Sequence record: ON871820
Strand: one strand, 5' to 3'
Source: Escherichia phage vB_Eco-B1.1
Length of the DNA stretch: 64,000 nt
Part shown: piece by piece, positions 3,228 to 4,698 of the stretch
How positions within the stretch are numbered: the stretch's first letter is position 1
Layout: each line of letters starts with the position of its first letter
Position numbers and translations under genes: made by a program
The notes under the pieces: model-generated
Databases searched by the model: none
The model's input: the letters and a program-made list of their open reading frames with translations, nothing else
What the model was told of the DNA's origin: nothing

Positions 3228-3859
3228 ATGTGCCGCATGTTTATAAGTATAAACATCCTAAAACTAAAAAGTGGTATATAGGAAGTCATGATGGTCACAA
3301 CCCGAATTATGATGGTTCGGGTGTAGTTTGGCAACATGTTAAAAAGAAATATGGAATAAAATCCTTTAATAAAGAAATATTATATGAAGGACCAATGTTT
3401 AGACAGGTTGAAGAAATTATTTTAACTTGTTTAGATGCTGCTAATTGTCCGGATTCATATAATTTAAAGAATGAAGCATGGGGAGGAAGTTTTCCAGGCA
3501 AATTAAATGGAATGTACGGTAAAAAACTATCTCCAGAAGAAAGATATAAGTGCGGAAATGCCTTTCGTGGAATCAAGCGTCCTGATCATTCTAAAAGAAT
3601 GAAAGGCGAAGGTAATCCAATGTATGGTAAAAATGAGCAGGCATATGGAATTATAAATCGAGCCAAGGAAAATTCTGGTAAAACTTATGAAGAAATTTTT
3701 GGCGTAGAAAAAGCTAAAATAATTAAAGAAACGATGTCTAAAAATCGTAAAGGAAAACCTCATAATTTGATAGAAAAAATATGTCCGCATTGCGGACTAA
3801 AAGGACGTGGGCCAAATATGACAAGATACCATTTTGATAAATGTAAGGCACTTAAATGA
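3218..3859 (+). CDS. GIY-YIG family homing endonuclease-like protein (Seg-type), 213 aa
   Basis: N-terminal VYKYKH...KKWYIGS GIY-YIG-like module; repeated GxxNxMYGK NUMOD3-like DNA-binding motifs; C-terminal CPHCG zinc-finger-like motif. Confidence 0.65.
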   Translation: MEVNVPHVYKYKHPKTKKWYIGSHDGHNPNYDGSGVVWQHVKKKYGIKSFNKEILYEGPMFRQVEEIILTCLDAANCPDSYNLKNEAWGGSFPGKLNGMYGKKLSPEERYKCGNAFRGIKRPDHSKRMKGEGNPMYGKNEQAYGIINRAKENSGKTYEEIFGVEKAKIIKETMSKNRKGKPHNLIEKICPHCGLKGRGPNMTRYHFDKCKALK

Positions 3860-4698
3860 TTCAATTCGTAATTCCAAGTTATCAGCGTGTCGGGGCAGTT
3901 TCTGCCCTTGATATGTTTCCGACTGATTATGAACCGCATATTGTAGTGCGTGAACATGAAGAAAAAGCTTATTATGATGCCTATGGGTCTAAAGCTAAAA
4001 TTATAACTATTCCTGATGATGTAAACGGAATTGCCGGTACTCGTAAAGCAATTACTGATATGTATGCAGGTCAACGAATCTGGATGATTGACGATGATAC
4101 TACTATTCGTATGAGTTCAATGCGAAAGAGAGATGATCGGCGCTGCGTAGATAAAGTCAATCAATTGACTCGTGAACAGTTCTATGAATTGATTCAATAC
4201 GTTGAAGATGCCATGGATTGCGGGTATTATCATGGTCATGCTCGTCTACCTATTTTTAAAATTACTTCATCTTGGGGTAATTATCGTGAAAATTCATATG
4301 GATTCACGAATACATGGTATGACCTCGGAAAACTTACGACAGAACAAATTGGGTATGGAAAAATTGATTTATGCGAAGATATGTATGCATTTCTCAATTT
4401 AATTAATCAAGGTTATCCGCATTTGGCCTTGTTCAAATATCTGGTTGTATCTGGAAAAGCACAAGCTCCTGGCGGATGTAGTTCAATTCGTAGTAATTCT
4501 AAACATAATAGAGCGCTTGAACAAATCAATAGAGAGTTTCCAGAGCAAGCTCGTTGGAAAACTTCTAATATTGAAAAACGAAAATCGTTGGGTGAAGAAG
4601 ATGAACCACTAAAGGTTCTTCGCATGTGTGTTTCGCGCAAAGAAAAATCAGAAGCATTTCATAAGTTTAATGCTATTCATCCAATAGCAGTTGATTAA
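3856..4698 (+). CDS. putative DNA (hydroxymethylcytosine) glycosyltransferase, GT-A-like, 280 aa
   Basis: Occupies the beta-gt position between 42 and uvsX but does not resemble T4 beta-gt as recalled; RIWMIDDDT looks like a DxD sugar-nucleotide motif. Confidence 0.45.
   Translation: MIQFVIPSYQRVGAVSALDMFPTDYEPHIVVREHEEKAYYDAYGSKAKIITIPDDVNGIAGTRKAITDMYAGQRIWMIDDDTTIRMSSMRKRDDRRCVDKVNQLTREQFYELIQYVEDAMDCGYYHGHARLPIFKITSSWGNYRENSYGFTNTWYDLGKLTTEQIGYGKIDLCEDMYAFLNLINQGYPHLALFKYLVVSGKAQAPGGCSSIRSNSKHNRALEQINREFPEQARWKTSNIEKRKSLGEEDEPLKVLRMCVSRKEKSEAFHKFNAIHPIAVD

Follow-up and report, generated by a model that had tools for sequence, protein, structure and literature searches.

A T2/T6-type beta-alpha-glucosyltransferase gene predicted between gene 42 and uvsX of Escherichia phage vB_Eco-B1.1

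The open reading frame at 3856..4698 on the plus strand of the window, the 64-kb stretch of phage DNA analysed here, can be assigned on sequence similarity to the classical beta-alpha-glucosyltransferase of phages T2 and T6 (ba-gt or ggt; beta-glucosyl-HMC-alpha-glucosyltransferase), a member of the Pfam TAGT family. The ATG-initiated frame encodes 280 amino acids, and its assignment draws on PHROG 842, Pfam PF20691 and a GT-A structural model. The best explanation of the gene, and one in which we have high confidence, is that its product makes gentiobiosyl-5-hydroxymethylcytosine (gentiobiosyl-hmC) from alpha-glucosyl-hmC. A first-pass annotation had left the protein as a transferase of unassigned identity and had mentioned the T2/T6 enzyme only as a comparator, when it is that very enzyme. 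The copy is intact and ordinary, and the enzyme is already known, named and common among T4-like coliphages. The present analysis establishes what the gene is, its family, fold class and locus, and the conservation of its motif; the reaction and the phenotypes come from published work.

Over its first 25 kb the window is around 96% identical to many Tequatrovirus genomes. Upstream of ba-gt lie the C-terminal part of the DNA polymerase gene, encoding gp43 (28-1512), ORFs of the imm region and gene 42 (2487..3227, plus strand), whose product, dCMP hydroxymethylase, supplies hm-dCMP and matches the Pfam thymidylate synthase family (1.3e-14) as well as T4 gp42 (94% identical). Downstream come uvsX (4776-5957), gene 40 and then gene 41 (6304-7731). 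The slot between gene 42 and uvsX also holds ba-gt in T2, T6, ECO4, TB37 and EL. The location given by the first-pass annotation thus stands, but a second gene in the interval had been overlooked. This is a 213-residue ORF at 3218..3859 (plus strand) resembling GIY-YIG/NUMOD3 homing endonucleases of the seg type (PHROG 314, homing endonuclease, 8.1e-30; 42% identity to the N-terminus of T4 SegA), which follows gene 42, as it does in G4498, and overlaps both gene 42 and ba-gt.

Relative to T2 the insertion comprises window positions 3224-3853 and falls at the ATGA in which, in T2, T6 and ECO4, the stop codon of gene 42 overlaps the start codon of ba-gt; it recreates an ATGA junction with ba-gt. 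On its upstream side gene 42 is only 90.5% identical to that of T2, while on its downstream side ba-gt is 97% identical. At 95% identity or above the endonuclease-like ORF is shared by 77 phage records, mostly annotated as ‘hypothetical protein’, compared with 474 records for ba-gt. It is missing from ECO4, and it distinguishes this phage from T2 and T6, which lack it; nor is it found in TB37, where gene 42 directly overlaps the start of the transferase. It plays no part in the glucosylation chemistry but supplies the sequence lying just before the ba-gt start codon. Expression of ba-gt could therefore differ, since the insertion abolishes the 42/ba-gt overlap seen in T2, although the arrangement is common to 77 phages. 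Scans of positions 2300-4900 found promoter-like matches at the same count as in shuffled sequence and three weak terminator-like matches, only one of them on the plus strand, within ba-gt at 3892-3908. A homopolymer tract is reportedly present in T2 agt; a search of ba-gt for such ‘contingency’ tracts (runs of at least six A/T or five G/C) found none.

The identity of the 280-residue protein was assessed in several ways. It matches PHROG 842, ‘beta-glucosyl-HMC-alpha-glucosyltransferase’, over its whole length with E = 5.6e-89, and Pfam PF20691 (TAGT, TET-associated glycosyltransferase) with 38.9 bits against a gathering threshold of 27.5, the latter match running from residue 3 to residue 207 and covering profile positions 2-205 of 205. 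No NCBIfam model matches it. A megablast search retrieved 474 phage records containing the full-length gene at 90% DNA identity or more and, where these are annotated, the label is usually beta-glucosyl-HMC-alpha-glucosyltransferase or beta-alpha-glucosyltransferase. With a full-length PHROG match and so many records at this level of identity, the ORF is clearly a genuine gene. A tblastn search adds around 200 further records at 60-80% identity from T4-like phages of Klebsiella, Enterobacter and Salmonella.

The protein of ECO4 is 100% identical to that of the window, that of G4498 differs at one residue (I50V), and that of TB37, a Tequatrovirus of the Durham collection in which it is annotated ‘glucosyl transferase’ (CAL1641136.1), is identical at 279 of 280 positions, the sole difference being K46R, and occupies the same slot. 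The EL enzyme differs at eight residues. In three independent T2 records 277 of the 280 residues are shared (99%), the substitutions from window to T2 being R11H, K46R and P251S. The annotated T6 coding sequence (MH550421) is identical at 257 of 261 positions (98%), and T6 NC_054907 shows four substitutions plus a one-codon gap; beyond the four substitutions, the T6 differences are lesions particular to the T6 records. The T2 and T6 enzymes (AYD82639.1 and YP_010067197.1) share with the window protein the length of 280 residues, the genomic slot, the Pfam and PHROG families and an invariant DDD.

Within the TAGT family, whose fold is GT-A and which is sister to CAZy GT2, the window protein shares the GT-A model and a DxD-type motif. 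Other members have a TET/JBP-type oxygenase or a beta-gt as their partner, or are solitary, whereas the window protein belongs to the Tequatrovirus subgroup paired with alpha-gt. It also extends some 70 residues (208-280) beyond the end of the PF20691 model, a C-terminal region conserved among T-even relatives. This region is modelled with low to moderate confidence, and binding of DNA or of the acceptor is a possible role for it. In other phages the family occurs beside a T4-type beta-gt: TAGT homologues 66% and 47% identical to the window protein lie directly upstream of such a gene in the Karamvirus Klebsiella phage VPA32 (3001-4904 of its locus) and in Serratia phage SP1 (2992-4940 of its locus), respectively. 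These tandem genes show that the 42-to-uvsX slot can hold a TAGT, a beta-gt or both, and suggest a beta-glucosyl-primed disaccharide in VPA32 and SP1.

The RIWMIDDDT segment, read at first pass as a GT-A-like DxD signature in a 280-residue ORF between gene 42 and uvsX, was found in that ORF as residues 74-82. The reading is borne out by the model and by the conservation of the acidic residues: D79, D80 and D81 (codons 4090..4098, plus strand) are invariant in both homologue alignments, A1 and A2, across sequences down to 23% identity. PDB sequence searches with the single protein and with the A1 profile gave only chance matches, to a PNPOx-like protein and to haemoglobin, so that no solved relative is detectable there by sequence. 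A single-sequence AlphaFold (AF2) model was unusable (pLDDT 40). A homologue search returned 11 cluster representatives of 28-98% identity, all carrying the precomputed TAGT domain PF20691, and from these the 10-sequence alignment A2 was obtained. The A2-based model has a mean pLDDT of 71 and a pTM of 0.73, with the N-terminal 80 residues at pLDDT 85-95 and residues 126-151 and 195-211 below 50. It predicts a GT-A fold, that of nucleotide-diphospho-sugar transferases, containing an acidic motif of the DxD type, and the two Rossmann domains of a GT-B enzyme are not seen in it.

In the model the DDD follows residues 74-77, which form strand four in the nucleotide-binding half. In GT-A enzymes a DxD at that position binds metal and the diphosphate of the nucleotide-sugar. 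By analogy, given the moderate confidence of the model (pLDDT 71) and a family with no solved structure, D79-D80-D81 most likely holds a divalent metal and the UDP-sugar diphosphate. We also infer a functional role for R11 (codon 3886..3888, plus strand), part of the N-terminal segment IPSYQR that follows strand 1; it is invariant in A2 but His in all three T2 records. The predicted fold agrees with an AlphaFold3 analysis which placed T6 TAGT in the GT-A superfamily, sister to GT2, and the alpha-GT and beta-GT of T4 among GT-B enzymes (PMC13216743).

The chemistry expected of the protein follows from published work on its relatives. In T2 and T6, alpha-GT glucosylates hmC first and beta-alpha-GT then adds a beta-1,6-linked glucose to give gentiobiosyl-hmC (PMC6024577; PMC13216743). 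Deletion of ba-gt from T6 leaves only alpha-glucosyl-hmC; the Brig1 glycosylase can then degrade the DNA in vitro, and sensitivity in vivo is increased (PMC11078745). The BapA glucosidase frees glucose from DNA of the T6 delta-g-gt mutant but not from wild-type T6 DNA (bioRxiv 10.64898/2026.02.25.707755). Among natural isolates, HPLC/MS of ten Tequatroviruses, which encode alpha-GT and a TAGT at the position of T4's beta-GT, found alpha-gentiobiosyl-hmdC present and beta-glucosyl-hmdC absent; the virion DNA of TB37, which is among the ten, contains about one third hmdC and two thirds alpha-gentiobiosyl-hmdC (PMC13390438).

In the pathway we propose, cytosine would be replaced by 5-hydroxymethylcytosine through gp42 and gp56, whose genes both lie within the window. 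Gene 56 (11331..11849, plus strand) specifies a dCTPase/dUTPase, which keeps cytosine out of phage DNA, and its product is 73% identical to T4 gp56 over the full length. An alpha-glucosyltransferase encoded outside the window would then attach an alpha-linked glucose to hmC in the DNA, and ba-gt, as a GT-A enzyme whose invariant D79-D80-D81 would hold the metal and the UDP-sugar diphosphate, would move a second glucose from UDP-glucose onto the 6-OH of that alpha-glucose in beta linkage, giving gentiobiosyl-hmC. The reaction would invert configuration, since an alpha-linked donor gives a beta-linked product. The resulting DNA would contain mostly gentiobiosyl-hmC together with unglucosylated hmC and no beta-glucosyl-hmC, with altered sensitivity to host defences directed at glucosyl-hmC; by analogy we predict DNA resembling that of T6 or TB37. 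The earlier suggestion that the gene specifies the type of hypermodification thus holds as far as it bears on the sugar carried by hmC and on sensitivity to restriction, but the gene would determine the second glucose and not the primary sugar.

The alpha-gt gene is absent from the 64-kb window, its site lying past gene 43, off the window edge. It is found at its canonical place in G4498, the nearest full-genome relative, whose locus has exactly the layout seen here, and also in T6 and EL; its presence in this phage is therefore argued from relatives. Immediately before gene 56, between it and gene 61, where T4 has dam, is a 216-residue ORF (10679-11329, plus strand) with an HNH motif (ERHHIIPR...NLVELTAREHFIAH) and NUMOD3-like repeats; no dam homologue occurs within the 64-kb window.

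How much gentiobiose the DNA carries is less directly accessible than the nature of the enzyme. Gentiobiosyl-hmC makes up around 5% in T2 and around 72% in T6 (PMC11078745; PMC6024577; bioRxiv 10.64898/2026.02.25.707755), and since the two enzymes are nearly identical the fraction is not readable from sequence. Intermediate levels also occur: the Durham phages EL, BGP and Geo have hmdC, glucosyl-hmdC and gentiobiosyl-hmdC at 1:2:2 (PMC13390438). It might accordingly be proposed that ba-gt is hypomorphic or poorly expressed here, giving T2-like DNA with mostly alpha-glucosyl-hmC and a few per cent gentiobiose. The low value of T2, despite a 99% identical protein, would be in keeping with this, as would the intermediate ratios of EL, BGP and Geo and the seg-like insertion, which takes the place of the sequence originally ahead of ba-gt and removes its translational overlap with gene 42. 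We nevertheless consider it quite unlikely. The ORF is intact, with every invariant residue present; it keeps the consensus R11 and P251, both of which T2 has lost; and the protein is one residue away from that of TB37, with about two thirds gentiobiose, but eight from that of EL. Moreover, the ATG is preceded at about 9 nt by AAGG, which resembles a Shine-Dalgarno sequence, and at the new junction ba-gt overlaps the ORF before it by ATGA, as it does gene 42 in T2. The proximity to TB37 and the retained R11 and P251 favour, without deciding, a high gentiobiose level in this particular phage.

The alleles of the laboratory phages deserve comment. R11H and P251S are present together in all three T2 records, while window codons 3886-3888 and 4606-4608 encode the consensus. 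R11 is invariant and P251 nearly so in TAGT homologues down to around 30% identity, and the two T2 substitutions may contribute to the low gentiobiose of that phage. In T6, record MH550421 (4923-4980 of its locus, minus strand) has TAG in place of the usual CAG at ba-gt codon 10, and its annotated protein starts at Met20 and has 261 residues; in NC_054907/AP018814 (locus 821-1660) one Asp codon of the DDD is lost, IDDDT becoming IDDT, and the protein has 279 residues. Both public T6 genome records thus carry a ba-gt lesion, which is surprising in the very phage that sets the standard for high gentiobiosylation; they could have arisen by mutation in individual stocks or as sequencing errors, or be variants that are tolerated. 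A more speculative reading, which we think rather doubtful, is that the window, with the consensus R11 and P251, a whole DDD and no premature stop, carries the fully active wild allele of ba-gt, that the laboratory alleles of T2 and T6 are altered, and that the gap between T2 and T6, and the graded ratios of natural Tequatroviruses, are largely allelic. If so, insertions of seg-type endonuclease genes 5' of ba-gt might add variation in expression.

A different product altogether might be envisaged if this TAGT extended beta-glucosyl-hmC, glycosylated hmC directly or used another sugar donor. TAGTs pair with either glucosyltransferase or stand solitary, so specificity varies within the family (PMC13216743), and the homologues of 47-66% identity in Karamvirus and Serratia phage SP1 adjoin beta-gt and not alpha-gt. 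The window copy, however, is 99% identical to that of T2 and 98% to that of T6 and differs at one residue from that of TB37, in whose DNA alpha-gentiobiosyl-hmdC was measured, while the window has no beta-gt and the nearest relative has alpha-gt. We therefore regard another specificity as very improbable, and a T2/T6-type enzyme making gentiobiosyl-hmC remains much the better account.

Comparison with the T4 enzyme is instructive. T4 beta-gt (NP_049658.1, PF09198), in the corresponding T4 slot, resembles the window enzyme in its genomic position, UDP-glucose donor, beta linkage and action on phage hmC DNA, but is unrelated in sequence, longer (351 residues against 280) and GT-B where the window protein is modelled as GT-A; its acceptor is hmC itself, that of ba-gt alpha-glucosyl-hmC. 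One-to-one BLASTP of the two proteins gave only chance fragments (best E = 2.2), T4 beta-gt scored -0.6 bits with an HMM of the window protein's family, and the window protein has no match to PF09198. T6 alpha-gt shows no similarity by BLASTP or family HMM, and the arabinosyltransferase candidate of RB69, ORF003c, gave E = 4.4 and -1.4 bits, respectively. No homologue of T4 beta-gt, T6 alpha-gt or ORF003c (the last sought by tblastn) occurs within the 64-kb window. T4 beta-gt identity is thus rejected on BLASTP, family HMM and fold, and the alpha-gt and ORF003c identities on BLASTP and family HMM. That the gene encodes a divergent beta-glucosyltransferase of the T4 type, or else an arabinosyltransferase, has one argument in its favour, its location in the 42-to-uvsX slot that beta-gt fills in T4. 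The likelihood of either is next to negligible in the face of these results and of the GT-B fold of T4 beta-gt, T6 alpha-gt and, by prediction, ORF003c against the GT-A fold predicted here.

The first-pass annotation had likewise seen no resemblance to T4 beta-gt and had named full-length homology to it among the observations that would overturn its view; none was found, and the ‘not beta-gt’ part of its proposal stands. Its placing of arabinose transferases at this same locus does not: RB69 has ORF003c elsewhere, between rIIA.1 and gene 39, and the product, a predicted GT-B enzyme, shares no sequence similarity with the window protein. Nor is a ‘non-T4’ gene anything special. The T4 pairing of alpha-GT with beta-GT occurs in only 6 of 753 phage genomes encoding such glycosyltransferases, most of which pair alpha-GT or beta-GT with a TAGT (PMC13216743). 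With its combination so rare, it is T4, and not this phage, that is the outlier, and the ‘non-T4’ state is the rule in the genus.

Recognition of ba-gt here matters for annotation and for prediction only, as it brings neither a new modification nor a new enzyme family. With gentiobiosyl-hmC DNA predicted, as in T6 and TB37, expectations can be drawn from published work on Brig1, BapA and GmrSD/BrxU. Mature DNA of this phage should resist the alpha-glucosyl-hmC glycosylase Brig1 in vitro and should also be resistant to the BapA glucosidase, yet still sensitive to enzymes of the GmrSD/BrxU type, and the phage would be expected to behave in screens of defence systems in a manner unlike that of T4.
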